This document shows positions 24,285-64,000 of a DNA stretch of 64,000 nt, in pieces. Position numbers and translations under genes: made by a program. Under the pieces are notes generated by a model. The model was not told the origin of the DNA. It saw nothing but the letters and a program-made list of their open reading frames with translations, and did no database searches. Where the stretch lies: assembly GCA_054600435.1 (NCBI GenBank), contig BAAIJX010000019.1:124001-188000 (forward strand), read 5' to 3'. Origin of the DNA: Neophaeotheca triangularis. Taxonomy: Eukaryota. The first letter of the stretch is position 1. Every line of letters starts with the position of its first letter.

Positions 24285-27200
24285 TTAGCTGTCATTCGCT
24301 AACCCGGCTCTCCATTTGTCCAACACGGTGGCAACGTCCTTGACTTGCGCCGGTTTAGTAATGTATTCGTCGACTCCCGCAACGAAAGCGGCGTGGCGGT
24401 CTTTGCTGCTGACGAGACCGGTGAGAGCTACGACGTGCAAACGTTGTGACAGATTTGAAGGAGGATGGTGTGATTCGCGATTTCGGATGGTAGAAGTGGC
24501 TTCGAAACCTATAGGTAGGGGTTGTGTTAGTGGGTGAGAGGGACGAGGCTAGTGGTTTTGGGCGGAAGGAAAGCTGCTTACCGTCGATTTCCGGCATCGA
24601 GAGGTCCATGAAGCAAATGTCGAAGGGGTGTTCGGAAGTCACGGCTTCTTCGTGAGCGGCTATGGCTTCACGACCACCGCTTGCAGTGATTGGCTCGTTG
24701 ATGCCGCATTTTTTAACGTACATGCGGAGGAGTTTGACGTTGATGGCGTTGTCATCAACAAGCAGGAGACGTGGTTCTCTGGATGGTGTGATAGACGGGG
24801 TGGGATTGGTGGCCTGCGACGATGAATGCGTTGATTCGCTGCTGGTGGAAGAGGTGGAAGTGGTGTGTCCTGCATCGGTATTGTTGTCGTGAGCCTCAGT
24901 AGCACCGGAGGAAACGTCTGTGGTATCGGAGCTTGCGTCCTCAACGGTGAGGGCCGCGGTGCTTTTGGTAAGGGTGTTGGAGTCGTCTATGACGCTGAAG
25001 ATCATGTGTAGGGCGTTTGAAAGTTTGGTAGGTACGAGCGGCCCTAAAATCTCCACCACGGGCCCTTCACCGACCGTGGAGTGCTTTTTGAGAGAGACTT
25101 GATTAGCGCTTGGTATGGACTCGGCGCCGATCAAGACCTTCTTCACATGCGCGTACCGCGCGTCGCAGCGCTGTTCGAACGTCTCGAGATCGCTACATCT
25201 GACAAAGAGTATGTCCGGAGTATCCAGTTCAGGCTCCCACATTTTCAGGTTTGTATAGGTCAATGCTTTTAGATTGCGTGTGAGGGACGCGAAGAGATTG
25301 TCAACCAGTCGCTCGCCCCTCAACCCGTAGATGCCGCTGGCCCAGACGGGAGGGATGAAAACTTGGGCTTGTAGCGGTGATGGTATGTGGCTCTGCGGCG
25401 GAATCACGCGGGGCTTCTTTAGAAGCCGAGGCGAACTTGTCAAGCTGGCCAGGGGAAGGACGACCTGCGCCATGGTGCCGATAGTTTCGTTGGAATCAAT
25501 GCGTATATTTCCTTTTAACGTGTCAACAACTCTTTTTACGAGAGGAAGACCCAGCCCTGTTCCGTTGTCTATCTGGTCGACTTGGGAGAATGGGACATAG
25601 AGACGGTTCTGTAGAAAATCTTTCGGAATGCCTCTGCCGCAGTCGGTTATTGCAACAGTGAGATTGCAGTCCTCAACGGTAACATTGACCCTCAAGCAGC
25701 AGTCAATTCCACTGTATTTGACGGCGTTTGTCTACGGTACGTCAGCGAATGTTGGCTCGCAGAAGATTGCTTTCTTCGATACTTACCAGTAGGTTTTCCA
25801 GGACAATACTGAATGCCTTGTTTGTGGTCAGATGGACTCTGTCTTCTTCGATGTTGGCGTCAAATGTGAAAACAATGGGATGACTATTGGCCTTAGTTCC
25901 ATCCGGCTCAGTAGTGGCGGCAGCGAGGCTGATGGTTTTCGTTCTTTCAACCGCCCTGCCAATGATCTTTTCACAAAGTTTCAACAGATCGGTTTCATCT
26001 TCGACATCAGTGGCGCTGTCGGGCGCGGTAATGCCAAGTGTGTCCAATCGGGACGGAGTGCCAACAGCCTTTAAACCATGAGCCGTGGCATTGATTTCGG
26101 TAAACTGCAGGATCTTGTCGATGTTATCCAGCAACTCGTTGCCACCAGTCCGTGCGCTTCGAATCAGGTCAGATTGCTCACGAGAGCATTTCGTACCCGT
26201 AAGGAGTTCGAGACTGCCTAGCACACCATGCAAAGGCGAGCGCATCTCATGGGAGACAGATCCCAAGAAGTCCACTTTCATGCGATCCAGTACATGCGAC
26301 TCAATGCGGCGTACCTGCGCCGCCACGGATGTGCAAAAGGCGGATAGCTGAGCAAGGTCGGCCTTGCTGGTGTACACTCGATAAAAGCTTGTGGACCACC
26401 CGAAGGCAGCTGCGGACGTGCGATTATGAAGCGAGTCCCATAATGGCATGAACATGACCTGCTTGGCGTCCGGGAACGACTGGCGGAGGGCATCACTAAC
26501 ATTCCGGTCCAGCAAGTTGGAGTTTCCGCCGGCGGCCGTCATGAATATAGCCTCTTCAGCACCATCGGACAAGTGAAAAGCAGCCCCGTGCGGGTATTGA
26601 GAGCTAAGCTGTTGAAGTGTGCTTTCTGGCACCTCGCACTGGCGCACAGAGGCTGTATTAAGCTTCTGCGCTAGCACACGATGTCCACTATTTCCCGGGA
26701 AGTTGATATCGCTTGCGGTGAGAATCTCTTGAAAGCGGCAACCGTCTAATTCGAACGCATTGAAAAGCAGCTCGGCGGCTTGGCGGTATATCTCCAGGAC
26801 ATAAGGCGTATGGTGGCCATTGTCGGTATTGGCGCTACGATCGCGCGGACCGAGGTTCGTGTCGAATTTATGCATGGAGTAAGTTGCAACTTCGAGGAGC
26901 GAGGCCACAGCGGAGTTAAACATGCTTGCCCTTGAGCCCTCGAGCGCTCTTTCTGCTTGCTCGAGCTGCCTCATGATGTTCTCGCTCGTGTCACACAAGA
27001 ATCTTCTTCGTTTCTGTAGCAAGCCGGGTGACGCATGTCTAGAGAACGTGAACACAGTGCCGATTACAAGGCCATCTGCACTGCAGATCGGGGAGCCAGC
27101 GTAGTGGCGGAAATCGGCGACCGTTCCGTTCACGAAGGGCAAGTTCCTCGTTTGGTCGTTCTCGGTCATATCGAGCTCTTCGTAGATGGCTGGCAAGTCT

Positions 27201-32001: not shown

Positions 32002-32105
32002 AAAAAAAAGTTTGGTAGCTCACTTTACTTGCATGTGTCATCCTTAGTGCAGGGGCCATGCTAATCTTCTCTGTATTGTTTCAAATTGACCATTTGCCCG
32101 AGGGC
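32002..32105 (-). ncRNA. U6: U6 snRNA copy 1 (variant A)
   Basis: GCCCTCGGGCAAATGGTCAATTTGAAACAATACAGAGAAGATTAGCATGGCCCCTGCACTAAGGATGACAC...T8; ACAGAGA box, AGC triad and ISL present. Confidence 0.97.
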
Positions 32106-37420: not shown

Positions 37421-37524
37421 AAAAAAAAGTTTGGTAGCTCACTTTACTTGCATGTGTCATCCTTAGTGCAGGGGCCATGCTAATCTTCTCTGTATTGTTT
37501 CAAATTGACCAAATGCCCGAAGGC
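37421..37524 (-). ncRNA. U6: U6 snRNA copy 2 (variant B)
   Basis: GCCTTCGGGCATTTGGTCAATTTGAAACAATACAGAGAAG...T8; body identical to copy 1 except nt 4, 12 and 13. Confidence 0.97.
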
Positions 37525-54867: not shown

Positions 54868-54970
54868 GCCTTCGGGCATTTGGTCAATTTGAAACAATAC
54901 AGAGAAGATTAGCATGGCCCCTGCACTAAGGATGACACATGCAAGTAAAGTGAGCTACCAAACTTTTTTT
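54868..54970 (+). ncRNA. U6: U6 snRNA copy 3 (variant B)
   Basis: Same sequence as copy 2; TATATAT at 54839-54845; T7 terminator. Confidence 0.97.
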
Positions 54971-57780: not shown

Positions 57781-59256
57781 GTTGTTGTAGTTAGTTGAGT
57801 TGAAGCCTTTCGATGAGGGAGAGCGGCCAGCTTATAAACCACGAGCGTTGCGCCGGCGCGTTGTGTTGAAAACCCTGGTGCCAGCCTCGAAAGTGATATG
57901 CGACATGCCAAGGTGTCTAAATAACGCATCAATGAGCCCACTGTAGTGTGTTGTAGATGCAAGCAGCGTTCTGAGCTTCCCTCCGAACTCCTGGCCTTCA
58001 CCAAATACCACGTTGACCATCTTGATATAAGGTGCATCATCCAGATCGCTCAACACGTTGATGCTTGAGAAAAGTGTATACAACCGCGACTTTGCGCAAT
58101 CTCTGTTAGACACTCTCGCTCATATACCTTCCATGATTGGGGACCGCGCATGATTCATCAGGCTTCTAAAGCCTTGTACTGGGTGTTCCCCTCTCTCATA
58201 GGTATCTCGCTCTGATGCTGCTCTGCAACAGTACCTTGAAGACGAATAAAGGAGATTGCATGCCTTTGCAGTAGGTCTGGAACAAATCAAAAGGTAGCGA
58301 ACGATCATGAAAAAATGTTTCTTTGACAGTGAGCCCAACGTATCTTAGACTCGAGCTTCGCCAAGATACGATCGCAGACAAAGAAAACATAAGGGGTGGC
58401 ACTGGGGCTACACACTGGTCTTTGTCCGTGTTCTTTTGTCCTTGCGAATTGCCGCGAGCCGGGGATATGTTCGACACTCGAGCAAATGCTCCATCACCAA
58501 ATTCATGTGTTTTCCAGCTACACTGTAAATTTTACCGCGGGAGCATGTCGCGCAATACCAGTAGCACCTCCCTACCCCTTTCGCCTCGAGTTTTGTGACC
58601 TTACTCTTTCGTCTTTACGTCCGTCCCTAGTAACAGCTTGTTGTCAAAGTACGACCACAAAAAGTCGCTGTTCACCGTTTGGCGTGCGGAAATGGGCGTT
58701 ATCATTAGATCAGCGGTTGCCCAGGTTTGGAAGGTCGTGTTGTGTTCGACGTGTCGCAGATGCACGAGGTAGATTGATCCAGAGGGGTCGTGCCATGTAG
58801 AGGGCTAAATGAGAAGGGGAACGTTCAAAAAGCCTTAATCGTTTTCGTAGGCGTGTAAGAAGCCAGTATCGAATCTTGAGCGGTCGCAGAATCAATTCCT
58901 TCCGACGGGTGGTGAGTATAGTTCTTGCTACTCGCCTCAAACATACAGACTTCCCGCTATGCCTTCGAGGGGTCGTTGTGACGGATTGCTTTATAGCTCC
59001 AAGATGAAAACACAAGTCGAAAGAAATGGCTCGCAGACCGAGCTGGCGCTTGTGCACTAGGATGCAGTAGCAAAGTCAGTTTGCAAAGGCCGAATCGCAC
59101 GTGGGAGTACCCCAGAACTTTGTGCTCGCGTAAAGAAATTGTGAAAACTGAATCGCCGTGCAAATGGGCGATGGCTACGGCCGTGCCGACGTATAGTTGG
59201 GTCAAGACTGTCCACAGCAACTATGGTATATATATGCTACACCGCTACACCTATCC

Positions 59257-59362
59257 GCCCTCGGGCAAATGGTCAATTTGAAACAATACAGAGAAGATTA
59301 GCATGGCCCCTGCACTAAGGATGACACATGCAAGTAAAGTGAGCTACCAAACTTTTTTTTTT
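59257..59362 (+). ncRNA. U6: U6 snRNA copy 4 (variant A)
   Basis: Same sequence as copy 1; TATATATAT at 59227-59235; T10 terminator. Confidence 0.97.
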
Positions 59363-59384
59363 GGGCTAAACCGAGTGAGTCCTG

Positions 59385-59395
59385 CGTTCGAAACA
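59385..59395 (+). promoter_or_regulatory. Pol III B box-like element downstream of U6 copy 4
   Basis: CGTTCGAAACA, 22 nt past the terminator. Confidence 0.55.
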
Positions 59396-60198
59396 TAGCC
59401 TAAGCCTTTTGTTTTGTTGCTACGACACGCTATTATAATGTCGAACAGGACATAAGTATGACGAACATCTGTTAGTATCGTGTGTAGTAGCGTAGTTGCG
59501 CATCTTCCCTTTCTGCGTTGCCTTGAAACATTGTGATGGCATATTTGCGTAGGGACCTCTTCTTTTGTGAGATTTACTAAGCGTTTCTTATGAGGTATCT
59601 TGGTATAACCATCGTTTTCGCCTCTTTTCCCCGCGCGTTGTATTGCCACAAGCGAAACATGGCTTTGTCTGTCGAAAGACTCCTCCAGGACTGAGGAATA
59701 GCAAGGGAGTAGTCAAAAATTTGGAGGACTCGAGGGTCAATCGAGGCTTAACAGCTGCCGTAGAGACAGTACGAAGACTTGGCTCACTTGTTCGCTTCGC
59801 ACTGTTCAATAGGAGGAGGAAAGACTAGAACTTGCTTATGGCGTGTTGCACTAAGAGTCTGAGAAAACTTCCTCTACCCCTGGGAAGCCCGCCAGTAGGG
59901 TTTTGGCCCATGCGATGTGGACAGCCACTTGTAAGTTAGCCTTCTGTCAGAAATAAAGAGGCCGTTGAGAGGGCTTCAATTGGGGGAACACGACAGAGAT
60001 ACAGCACAGACAGGCAAGGTAAGGTGAACGACATTGCTAGCGGTCCCTTCACAAGATGAGACAACCGTCTGACCCTAGGCCCCACTGTATTGTGGTAGCC
60101 ATGTGTAATACGGAGCGAGCAGTGCGCGGAAAGGCAGACCAGTGTCACTTGGTCGCAGCAATAGAGTCATAATTCACAACTTTCACTTTCAAAAAGTC

Positions 60199-60231
60199 AA
60201 AAAAAAAAAAGATTGAAACCGGGCTCGAACG
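60199..60231 (-). terminator. B box-like motif plus T12 run downstream of U5
   Basis: Minus strand reads CGTTCGAGCCC (60231-60221), then GGTTTCAATC, then T12 (60210-60199). Confidence 0.5.
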
Positions 60232-60239
60232 AGTGGCTT

Positions 60240-60336
60240 TGTGTTTCCAAAGATTGTTTTTCCGACTTAGTGCGATGGGCCAGGGATACATGTGGTAAAA
60301 GGCAACGAGTATACTGATTAACCCAACCGCGTCGGT
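60240..60336 (-). ncRNA. U5: U5 snRNA (possibly a variant copy; ends approximate)
   Basis: Invariant loop I TTGCCTTTTACCA; stems CCGAC/GTCGG and GCGGTTGGG/CCCATCGC; Sm-like site AATCTTTGG at 60255-60247. Confidence 0.8.
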
Positions 60337-60600
60337 GCTGGGTCTTCGGTTTTGCATCATATCTACTCTTGTTACATCGCCCCAGTTGTATCTCGCCCTC
60401 CAGGCATGGTGGCCCATGCGCAATGCTTCTGCCTAAGTCTCCCATGCCGCGTCCCACCTCTCTCCCAACATCCTCACCCACCACCATTTCAATCTCCGAC
60501 CTTGCGCGGTCTGGAAAGACCCTCACCATCTCCATTGCAGCGCACAAGCATCCATGGTGAGTAGCTGCTCTGCAATCTTCCCCTGGGACGCATCTCTCGC

Positions 60601-60682
60601 ATGATGAAAACACGACCCAACAGCGTATGGACGTTCTTTTTTCGAGTCCAATGATCGCATAACAAGTATTGTTTCAACCTGA
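60601..60682 (+). ncRNA. Intronic box C/D snoRNA 1, guide antisense to U6
   Basis: C box ATGATGA 60601-60607; D box CTGA 60679-60682; GTATTGTTTCAA (60666-60677) is the reverse complement of U6 nt 22-33. Confidence 0.75.
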
Positions 60683-60901
60683 CAACACGCGATTCTTCCG
60701 CCTACTCTTTTCACGTACGCGCCTTCAACCCACGCCCAGCTGACATTTGTACCGACAAGCGCGCGCAGGCGGCCGTCGGGACGCCCCATCCAAGCACCTT
60801 CGATGCGACATCATTCGCCGCGCTCTCTGTACCCAAGCTTCTGTGCCCCTTCATCATCGAAACACTGTAAGGTAAGATGAACTTATCCAACGCACCCTTG
60901 C

Positions 60902-60985
60902 ATGATGATCACCGCAGGCAGCGAGTGGACTGTTGCTAGTCCGTCATGAGCCACTGTCGACTACTACATAGAATCAACCATCTGA
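60902..60985 (+). ncRNA. Intronic box C/D snoRNA 2, guide antisense to the 18S rRNA 5' end
   Basis: C box 60902-60908; D box 60982-60985; GACTACT...AGAATCAACCA before box D. Confidence 0.75.
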
Positions 60986-61207
60986 ACTCACCTCAACCAC
61001 CCCACTACTATTCGCATAAGAAGAAGCCTCCCTAGCTGACACCGCTTTCCGAGGCAGCCACGCATAGAGCACTTCAACGAGCTCTACGCAGCACTGCAGC
61101 AGATACCCAGCTTCTCACCACCAATCTTTGGAACGTTGTCAAGAGGAGTCCTTGGGTGCCAAGTGACCTTTAGGTAAGACCAAACATATTTCCGATTCCA
61201 CATCAGC

Positions 61208-61293
61208 ATGATGAAATCCAAAATACCCGAGAACGACAGTTGCTTGTCTCCAGTGTTCGACCTTTGACTACGGGTTGAGAATCAACCATCTGA
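61208..61293 (+). ncRNA. Intronic box C/D snoRNA 3, paralogue of snoRNA 2
   Basis: C box 61208-61214; D box 61290-61293; shares the 18-nt AGAATCAACCATCTGAAC and upstream GACTAC with snoRNA 2. Confidence 0.75.
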
Positions 61294-61623
61294 ACAGCTC
61301 AGAATCCGTTCATCTGCATTGCTCATCCACGGAAGACGCGATCTGAAGCTGACGCCCTCTCCAACTAGGCAAATGCCATGATCTGCGACCTTCCTACAGC
61401 CAACGCAATCTGGCGTGGCGCAAGTAATGTTCGGCTGTGCGTGGCCCATAAGTGTCAGAGAAATTTGTGGAGAGACTTCCTTGGGACAGCTGCCATCTCG
61501 TCTGTGCTGCCCAAAGAGCCTCCAACGGTAGGGTAGCTGCTGGAAAACAGCAGCACCAGAGACTGCTAATGTTGCGCTGTGCCAGACGACGAGTAAGCAC
61601 CCTCCCATCTTTTGTCCTGCGTG

Positions 61624-61697
61624 CTCGCGAAGATGATACCAGGTTATCGCAATTGAGCACTGTGTGCGGTGAAAAGATCAAGAACGGCCTGAGCGGG
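61624..61697 (+). ncRNA. Intronic box C/D snoRNA 4, two guides antisense to the 18S h33/h34 region
   Basis: Degenerate C box AAGATGA 61630-61636; D box 61689-61692; terminal stem CTCGC/GCGGG; guides GTTATCGCAATTGAGCA and AAGAACGGC. Confidence 0.7.
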
Positions 61698-64000
61698 CGG
61701 CGACCTGGCGAGACAATTATGGACATCAGGACCGAGAGTCGCGCAGAAGCTGACAACATAGAGGTCCAGAGGAGCGATCACCGTAGATGCAAGAGCCACC
61801 GTAGAGTGTTCTGCAGACAAGCGTGCTGCAGATGTTACGCACGACAGTAAGGACGCCTTCGAAGAGGCCATGGCCTTTCTGGCCCGAGAGAGGTAGACAT
61901 AAACTGCTCGGGTTCGACAGCACTAACCGTTCGAGAAATCGAGGGTGGCCCTCGTCATCAGAGCCTCGAGCCAGACAAAAGGTATGCTGCAACCATCTCT
62001 TTGTTCTGATTTCATTATTCCTTATCCTATTCTTTCCCCATGCAACACATCCCGCACTCGGAACGCAGTACTGCTGTCGACGCCTCACGACGATTGCACG
62101 ACCAGAAGACTAAAGAGTAGCGCACCATGTTTTCGCAAAAGCTATTATGGTGCGAGTCGAGCCGATTAATATGCAAAAAAGGTCACAGAAGATGCACTCA
62201 AGTCTTGCGAGCCTTCCCGCAAACAATCCACTATTTCCGCCGCACCGGCCGCTCAGCCGCATTGCAACGTAGACTACTCAACTCTCGATCTCTTGAGCCC
62301 CAGGCCAGCTATCATTATGCTCAAGCCACCAAAGGCACGGCCTCCGGAAAAGGGATGAGAACGGAACACCGCCCACCTCCCAAGGCTCGCAGAGTCGCGG
62401 GCCTTTGCGGCTCCGCTATGGAGACAAGAAAGCCGACCACAAAAGAGGCCAATTGTGGATCTGGAGATGCAGCATCTTGAATCATGGCCTGCAATGAAGA
62501 CGGCCGAACAACAATTGGCGACTTTCATCGCTTGTCCATGTGTACAACATTCCGACGCTCCCTGCGACCGCTACTGTGTCTACGTCTCTCTCTCACCCGC
62601 ACGACACCGCAAAGAAAGCTGGAAAGAGTAGAAGGGAACCGGTAAGTAAATTTGCGGGAGGAGGCTTTCGAAAATCGAACAAGACACTTCTTGATGTAGG
62701 GAGCGTAGACGGAGCGCGCAGAGCACCGATACTTGATGAAGCCTGTCTGGGAATCCTCACCTCCCTAGCTCCCACGCTTCTTACTTGAGGCCATTGCCCC
62801 TCCTCGCGAACGGCCAGAGCTGGAAAGTAAGGAACCGAGTAAGAGCTGGGGCAACAATGAAGGTTCAGTAATTGCAGGCGGAAGCTGTGAACAATCGGTA
62901 GGATTTTGCAGCGACAATAGCTGGGTTGGGAAGCAAGAGACGGAAGCAATCATACCGAGATGTTCGCGTGTCCGAGCATGCTGGATATTTGGCACGGCAA
63001 GAGCATGTTGGTACAAGCACGGAGGGGCAATGAGCACCCCCGGGTCCGAGTAAAAGCGACGGTGAGTTTCCACCGCTCAAGATCCAGAAAATAACAAGCG
63101 AGGTGTGTCTACGCTGGGGCTATCCAGCCTTGACACTCGAGAGCTCTGTTCGATATCGAGATTGGAGCCTAGGCCTCATTTGAAACACTATCACACCACA
63201 TGATCTGTCACGCTTTTCGCGCTATTGGGCTGCTTGGGTGATCGTTGTTATGGGCCGCTGACAAATGCGGCTCAGGAGTCAGACGCATTCCCCTTGCCAC
63301 TGCGTCGGCCGCCCATCTTTCCAAGACTCCTAGTCAGATCAACAAAGTTCTTCGAAGCATCCGTTTGTCAACTTGGCTCGCGAGAGGCGACTGGCGCTTG
63401 AGCATCATGACAAAGTCAAGACTCCATGTCTTCGAGAAGAGAGATGTGTTGCGGGCATCCGCTGACCCATAGCCAGACTAGCTGGGCTCTCAGAGCCGTA
63501 AACGAATCAATGAGGGTTTCGGACACCATGTACGGCATTGACGAGCCTTGGCAGCTCGCGTCGCTATTGCCCTGAGAATGCCCAAATCACATGGCCGAAC
63601 AGTGACAGGCCGAAGCAAGGTCGTAAGCAGCTTACCCTTCAAATGGTCTCTGCCTCGCCCGGCCGGAGGTTCGTCTACCAAGGTCAAAGCTACCTGGTAC
63701 AAGGCTGCTGTTATAGGCCTCACCACAGCCACCACGTCTCTCTTGATGCTGTCTTCCGTCCTCTCCACTAAGCCCCTCTTCCCTCCCGAGTTTCCGTCCG
63801 AAATACCATGCCTTTGAAACACCACAAGAAGCCGCGACAACCTTCTCCATGCCCAGAGGGAAAAGATCAAAGGAAGGAAGAGTTCGGAAAGATATGGGGA
63901 AACAATATAGCGGGGAGAAAGAGACACTCGGCGATGTTGGCGTCGAAGTCATAGGGAAAAGCTGGCGAGATGTCAAGAGGAGATGACAATCACAAGGCTT

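Follow-up and report, generated by a model that had tools for sequence, protein, structure and literature searches.

A probable intron-encoded box C/D snoRNA with A25 of U6 as its predicted methylation target in Neophaeotheca triangularis

U6 is the catalytic spliceosomal RNA, and its modification map is known for few organisms only. Guidance of U6 2'-O-methylation (Nm) by snoRNA has been established in fission yeast (PMC10484740) and in humans (PMC5855946), and these and the following sources are cited here for those portions of their text and tables that were available. Human U6 carries Nm at A47, A53, G54, C60, C62, C63, A70, and C77 (PMC5855946), and the box C/D guides tabulated for human and Xenopus are directed to A47, A53, C60, C62, and C77, together with the Xenopus-specific C68, no "U6-G" entry being present in the available part of that table (PMC6984369). 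In S. pombe, the guide for A41 is snoZ30 and that for A64 is sno530, further marks are located at C55–C57, and the A41 mark is abolished by deletion of snoZ30 (PMC10484740). The U6 of S. cerevisiae is stated to be without 2'-O-methyl groups (PMC5855946).

Several fungal surveys include guides to spliceosomal RNAs. Table 1 of the N. crassa study gives U6-Am47 (CD11), U5-Am62, U2-Gm183, and U2-Am31 as the snRNA sites, in a list that is non-exhaustive according to its authors (PMC2780460). A C/D snoRNA to U1, U5, or U6 was not found in the A. fumigatus screen, as far as the available part of that report extends (PMC2377427). The main text of the fungal snoRNAome study names U6-62 (CD11/snR53), U6-70 (CD54), and U6-85 (snR191), describes U6 Nm guides as predicted across Pezizomycotina and the CD54–U6 pairing as conserved across the same group, and, apart from the S. 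cerevisiae number 45, mentions no U6 position numbered in the 40s of its alignment; the supplements may list more (PMC5824354). By RiboMeth-seq, Arabidopsis U6 was found to be methylated at U27 (SnoR167), A43, A48 (SnoR53Y), C57, C63, A65, and G75 (PMC8053127, Table 3), and in the 5' region of Tetrahymena U6 both Um23 and Gm14 were verified (PMC3273799).

The DNA analyzed here, referred to as the window, is a stretch of 64,000 nucleotides of the Neophaeotheca triangularis genome. A box C/D RNA had been proposed at 60601–60682 in a first-pass annotation of the window, and this proposal was borne out by its box C, its box D, the 82-nt anatomy, and its placement within a predicted intron. The features of the element, in window coordinates, are as follows.

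60601..60682, plus strand: box C/D snoRNA core, from box C to box D, 82 nt (from the sequence)
60601..60607, plus strand: box C, ATGATGA, matching RUGAUGA at 7/7 positions (from the sequence)
60624..60627, plus strand: D' candidate CGTA, weak (2/4), flanking the internal hairpin (sequence reading)
60628..60650, plus strand: internal hairpin TGGAC / GTCCA, 5 bp (fold)
60651..60657, plus strand: C' candidate ATGATCG, weak (5/7 versus RTGATGA), flanking the internal hairpin (sequence reading)
60666..60677, plus strand: D guide GTATTGTTTCAA, 12 nt, complement of U6 nt 22–33
60678, plus strand: spacer C, the single nucleotide between guide and box D
60679..60682, plus strand: box D, CTGA (from the sequence)
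60597..60692, plus strand: external 4-bp stem of TCGC (60597–60600) and GCGA (60689–60692), the latter 6 nt past box D (folds)

The interval between box C and the guide is 58 nt, and the mature snoRNA probably ends a few nucleotides beyond the core. A total of 26 RTGATGA sites were identified in the window, five distinct ones of which are followed by CTGA at 57–118 nt downstream, and three of these five RTGATGA..CTGA pairs, with lengths of 82, 84, and 86 nt, are located in consecutive predicted introns. In the predicted gene structure listed below, the element at 60601–60682 is the first of three, and perhaps four, one-per-intron box C/D elements in its host gene.

60557..60768, plus strand: predicted host intron 1, with the GTGAGT donor at 60557, the branch site CAGCTGAC with branch A at 60743, and the acceptor AAG at 60759 or CAG at 60768 (sequence signals)
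60902..60985, plus strand: second box C/D element (predicted intron 2), 84 nt long; branch A 54 nt past box D
61208..61293, plus strand: third box C/D element, paralogous to the second, 86 nt long; branch A 59 nt past box D
61630..61692, plus strand: candidate fourth element, 63 nt, in predicted intron 4, with AAGATGA as box C and CTGA as box D; branch A 61 nt past box D

The fourth element is listed as a candidate only, because its box C carries one mismatch. Each of the four predicted introns combines a donor of the form GTRAGN with the branch site AGCTGAC, and the branch A follows box D at 61, 54, 59, and 61 nt, respectively. The element at 60601–60682 therefore follows the intronic, one-per-intron arrangement at a regular distance from the branch point, within introns that are predicted from sequence signals. 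The second and third elements have in common the D guide AGAATCAACCAT, the complement of which has no other occurrence in the window.

Boxes of this kind might in principle also be found in a functionless sequence, either a decayed copy of a snoRNA or a chance arrangement of motifs within an intron. Such an origin would agree with the lack of a terminal stem adjoining the boxes (no helix immediately flanking boxes C and D was present in the folds), with the degeneracy of the C' and D' candidates, with the result that the Rfam snoRNA families gave no match within 59000–64000 even at E up to 10, and with a folding energy no better than that of shuffled sequences (z = 0.33). C' and D' boxes are frequently degenerate in eukaryotes, and a folding energy close to that of shuffles is normal for the box C/D class; the MFE fold of U6 is likewise not better than shuffles. 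Against a functionless origin, boxes C and D are both perfect, the size of the element and its distance to the branch site match those of two or three intronic neighbors, and a perfect guide stands at the correct place, so that decay or chance assembly is regarded as very unlikely.

The proposed target RNA is encoded four times in the window. The four U6 genes, detected with Rfam at 78.6–81 bits (gathering threshold 44), are located as follows.

59257..59356, plus strand: U6 gene (Rfam), with target nt 22–33 at 59278–59289 and A25 at 59281; the U6 closest to the snoRNA
54868..54967, plus strand: U6 gene (Rfam), with the target at 54889–54900
37425..37524, minus strand: U6 gene (Rfam), with the target at 37492–37503
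32006..32105, minus strand: U6 gene (Rfam), with the target at 32073–32084

Among the four copies there are two sequence types; the differences between them are confined to the 5' stem-loop and nt 12–13, and the target nt 22–33 are therefore identical in all four. The genes are arranged in mirror order (minus, minus, plus, plus), the outer pair being mutually identical and the inner pair likewise; the repeated DNA around each gene covers only about 105–135 nt, and the stretches between the U6 genes are not repeated.

The claim of a perfect 12-nt guide that ends one nucleotide before box D was confirmed on the coordinates, with GTATTGTTTCAA at 60666–60677, C at 60678, and CTGA starting at 60679, and the guide is, also as claimed, the exact Watson-Crick complement of U6 nt 22–33 in all four U6 genes of the window. 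Since C60678 is mismatched with U21 and A60665 with A34, at the two edges of the duplex, the pairing between guide and U6 is exactly 12 bp, all of Watson-Crick type. The duplex is rich in A and U (3 of the 12 pairs are G-C). Pairing begins at the second nucleotide upstream of box D, and the fifth nucleotide, T60674, pairs with U6 A25, in agreement with the target that the D+5 rule had been used to predict. The predicted site indeed lies just 5' of the ACAGAGA box (nt 32–38), A25 being 7 nt before it. The arrangement as a whole is that of a box C/D antisense element, with a complementarity of at least 10 nt, placed 1–2 nt upstream of box D, and with the target nucleotide opposite position 5. 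It should be added that A25 and A29 are the two positions at which an A of the local U6 stands in place of the g of the Rfam consensus, and that the guide has U opposite both; the guide is thus fully Watson-Crick with the local U6 variant, without wobbles. The equivalence of A25 with human G34 and S. cerevisiae A40, put forward in the first-pass annotation, is consistent with the Rfam alignment insofar as the consensus "g" over A25 fits human G34.

The frequency expected by chance was estimated in several ways. A search of the window for the 12-mer, one mismatch being allowed, gave five sites, namely the guide and the antisense of the four U6 genes, where 0.19 would be expected; five sites were reached in 0 of 100 shuffles. 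Two antisense U6 12-mers fall outside the U6 genes, one being the guide and the other located at 25020, and for this reason the 12-mer alone is not rare; the one at 25020 occurs by chance and has no RNA-like context. In comparisons of the three snoRNA-like elements with shuffled versions of U6 and U5, 3 of 2000 shuffles contained, at any position, a run of at least 12 Watson-Crick pairs, and the energy of the guide–U6 duplex, −14.6 kcal/mol, was equalled by 1 of 1000 shuffled U6 sequences. Both shuffle tests leave out the placement directly against box D, and the requirement that the run abut box D is estimated to tighten the chance figure about tenfold. It is the context, rather than the 12-mer by itself, that separates the element from chance. 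Duplex folding of whole snoRNAs with whole U6 and U5 yielded long, loop-ridden structures, and was replaced by counts of ungapped runs and by guide-only duplexes.

The comparison of targets covered the U6 and U5 genes of the window, in which Rfam detected only the four U6 genes and a sub-threshold U5, and ARAGORN no tRNA genes. The rRNAs, U1, U2, U4, and the tRNAs lie outside the window, and for the D'-side stretch of the element (60608–60623), to which no target could be assigned, the best match within the window has 8 bp, with U5 nt 10–17, and is at chance level. These points would be compatible with a genuine box C/D snoRNA that acts on rRNA, another snRNA, or tRNA, the match to U6 being coincidental or unproductive, and a guide with multiple targets is exemplified by N. 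crassa CD11, which is directed to 18S, 26S, and U6 (PMC2780460). A perfect 12-bp match at the exact position of the guide is, however, rare by both shuffle counts given above, at any position and by energy. The 8-bp match to LSU rRNA that was proposed in the first-pass annotation as a weaker alternative is shorter than the 10–21 bp range for box C/D guides, and in N. crassa the adjacent LSU site has already been given to the U18-type guides CD46A/B (26S-Am635), according to the available text (PMC2780460). Action of the snoRNA on one of these other RNAs is thus rather unlikely, and U6 remains the preferred target.

The reading favored here, and considered fairly probable, is that of an intron-encoded box C/D snoRNA directing the 2'-O-methylation of U6 A25. 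Under this model, intron 1 of a host transcript with several snoRNAs would, after splicing and trimming, release a snoRNA of about 85–90 nt in its mature form, which would be bound by Snu13, Nop56, Nop58, and the methyltransferase Nop1/fibrillarin. The 12-nt guide before box D would then pair with U6 nt 22–33, in the segment that separates the 5' stem-loop from the ACAGAGA box, and fibrillarin would 2'-O-methylate A25, which faces position 5 of the guide. The assembly of box C/D snoRNPs and the methylation by fibrillarin opposite position 5 are established behavior of the class, and it is from this behavior that transcription and processing of the present RNA, its assembly into a snoRNP, its meeting with U6, and the methylation are inferred; the DNA itself shows the motifs with their spacing, the placement in a predicted intron, and a guide exactly complementary to all four U6 genes. 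The energy of the guide–U6 duplex is within the range of another fungal U6 guide, the pairing of snR53/CD11 with U6 having a mean of −13.78 kcal/mol in the available part of that study (PMC5824354).

A perfect guide may exist without a mark, as in the table for Xenopus, where for the new mgU6-68 guides "methylation not detected" is given in some contexts (PMC6984369). The snoRNP might pair with U6 without methylating it, and serve in U6 maturation as a chaperone or as a transient mask 5' of ACAGAGA. Box C/D RNAs that do not methylate do exist, as U14 in pre-rRNA processing (PMC2780460), and the U-rich stretch at 60635–60642 could add eight pairs, two of them G-U, with U6 nt 34–41, abutting the guide duplex. 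This additional pairing is, however, of low complexity, and 8-bp runs containing G-U are common (13 runs of at least 8 bp among those listed). Moreover, the geometry for methylation is canonical, with pairing from position 2 and a Watson-Crick A-U pair at position 5, and nothing in the sequence appears to oppose catalysis specifically. Pairing without methylation is therefore held to be highly improbable, and methylation of A25 is retained as the favored reading.

The prediction is clean and testable, in that it concerns one RNA and one nucleotide and that the guide, being borne by an intron, can be removed. A guide to the stretch just 5' of ACAGAGA would add a site to the U6 map and, together with the plant Um27 two nucleotides away, would suggest that this short single-stranded stretch is recurrently targeted by lineage-specific ribose methylation. 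If the predicted guide leaves no mark, the result would be another warning against taking D+5 complementarity as proof of modification.

A second spliceosomal RNA gene is located between the closest U6 gene and the snoRNA host gene.

60228..60336, minus strand: U5 gene, with the invariant GCCUUUUAC loop (Rfam score 37.2 bits, gathering threshold 40, E = 0.0021)

The U5 gene (60228–60336, minus) and the snoRNA host gene (60440–61800, plus) are divergent, head-to-head, with a gap of about 150–200 bp, and a U6 gene is located 1.3 kb upstream of the host gene. The genes of two spliceosomal RNAs thus form a physical cluster with a guide directed to one of the two RNAs. Within the second element, the D'-side sequence AGGCAGCGAGTG (60916–60933, plus) ends 2 nt before CTGT, a D'-like box, and forms with U5 nt 26–37 a run of 12 contiguous pairs, including two G-U, which takes in the 5' side of stem 1c as well as the initial nucleotides of loop 1; position 5 would fall on U5 C28. 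Runs as good were, however, found at any position in 70 of 2000 shuffles, and the energy was equalled by 64 of 1000 shuffled U5 sequences, and the pairing of the second element with U5 is regarded as suggestive only. An extended reading, in which the host gene would be a dedicated spliceosomal-RNA modification unit linked to its substrate genes, installing a lineage-specific Am25 in U6 and, through its second element, marking U5, is distinctly unlikely. If both marks were real, this lineage would mark parts of U6 and U5 that lie near elements handling the 5' splice site, parts that are unmodified in the model organisms compared.

Relatives of the element were searched for with a pattern consisting of the guide plus box D, with Y allowed at two positions, against metagenome and viral contigs. 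At least 117 loci on metagenome contigs matched the pattern, and RTGATGA was present within 110 nt upstream in 0 of the 118 matches listed; looser variants of box C accompanied 19 of these 118, none of which resembles a fungal snoRNA. On viral contigs, at least 119 loci matched. The guide-plus-box-D pattern is too short for collections of such size, and the scans are saturated with chance matches. Two of the 19 are on contigs that begin with C4A4 telomere repeats (L012:2164–2180, minus; L069:98–114, plus), where the guide-plus-box-D 17-mer is located about 60 nt inside the telomere and 37 nt after TGATG. The telomere repeats are as in nanochromosomes of spirotrich ciliates. Because these two contigs are 98% identical, the conservation of the 17-mer between them is uninformative, and it is most likely a chance match. 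Among the sequencing sets matching the window, of which the word shares were 0.39 (a second assembly), 0.05 (a marine metagenome), and 0.00, there were no RNA datasets.

A text search of the literature for the 12-mer or its complement returned no snoRNA catalogue among the titles, and several studies of yeast U6 or the exosome. In the latter, the string is presumably that of a probe oligonucleotide. The guide GTATTGTTTCAA is absent from all box C/D sequences in Additional file 1 of the N. crassa study (PMC2780460), and the available portions of two further reports (PMC8216456, PMC3089462) contain nothing bearing on the A25 site. In the guide lists of human, Xenopus, S. pombe, N. crassa, and A. 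fumigatus, and in the main text of the fungal snoRNAome study, as far as these sources were available, an equivalent of A25 was not found; and in the portions at hand none of the U6 Nm sites mapped in human, S. pombe, Arabidopsis, or Tetrahymena falls at this position. The first-pass annotation had noted that the site is missing from the human U6 methylations it listed and had advised comparison with fungal snoRNA catalogues; the site is also off the published human list (PMC5855946) and the human/Xenopus guide table (PMC6984369), and a guide for A25 is not found in the available lists of N. crassa, A. fumigatus, and S. pombe. The description of the site as unfamiliar holds insofar as it is on no list compared; it is weakened by Arabidopsis Um27, only two nucleotides away, and by the lineage-specific sites known in Tetrahymena and Xenopus.

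When set beside the described families (mgU6-47/snoZ30/SNORD7, mgU6-53, mgU6-77, SNORD67, SNORD94, CD11, CD54, and sno530), the element at 60601–60682 belongs to none of them, the targets of all being different from A25. Like it, snoZ30 (the S. pombe mgU6-47) and SNORD7 (the human mgU6-47) are box C/D guides of U6 2'-O-methylation (PMC10484740, PMC5855946). They are directed to S. pombe A41 and human A47, respectively, and the element shows no Rfam or sequence match to them. This target, A41/A47, would be the final A of ACAGAGA and would lie 13 nt downstream of the predicted A25 site. The N. crassa CD11 (snR53 family) and CD54 are also fungal box C/D guides of U6, CD11 being intron-encoded and CD54 being given as "IR" in Table 1 (PMC2780460). 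Both use a D' guide and target the side of the AGC triad and internal stem-loop of U6 (N. crassa U6-47 and U6-55), whereas the element at 60601–60682 uses a D guide; as read from the CD11 sequence, N. crassa U6-47 would be the A of UUAGC, corresponding to A44 of the U6 examined here. Homology to CD54 was considered and rejected, since the stretch UCUUUUUUCG is common to both but the D' guide of CD54, GGGGCCAU, is missing here.

The closest site is that of Arabidopsis SnoR167, an assigned box C/D guide for a mapped Nm, Um27, in the same short stretch 5' of ACAGAGA (PMC8053127). If Arabidopsis A48 is set to A44 of the U6 here, with no indel between, Um27 would correspond to U23, 2 nt 5' of A25; it differs from the predicted site in nucleotide, in base, and in kingdom, and the comparison draws on SnoR167 as entered in Table 3. 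Tetrahymena TtnuCD21 (U6 Um23/Um22) is a lineage-specific U6 guide, verified by primer extension, to a site in the 5' stem-loop (PMC3273799), and Xenopus mgU6-68a/b (U6 C68) are lineage-specific guides to the side of the internal stem-loop (PMC6984369). The sites of both fall outside the canonical human set. Lineage-specific U6 guides are thus a known phenomenon, Tetrahymena and Xenopus each having sites of their own. By this comparison, the element at 60601–60682 probably adds a new member to a class already known, the U6-directed methylation guides, and is an RNA of a familiar kind for which the predicted nucleotide is new relative to the catalogues compared, in the portions of them that were available.
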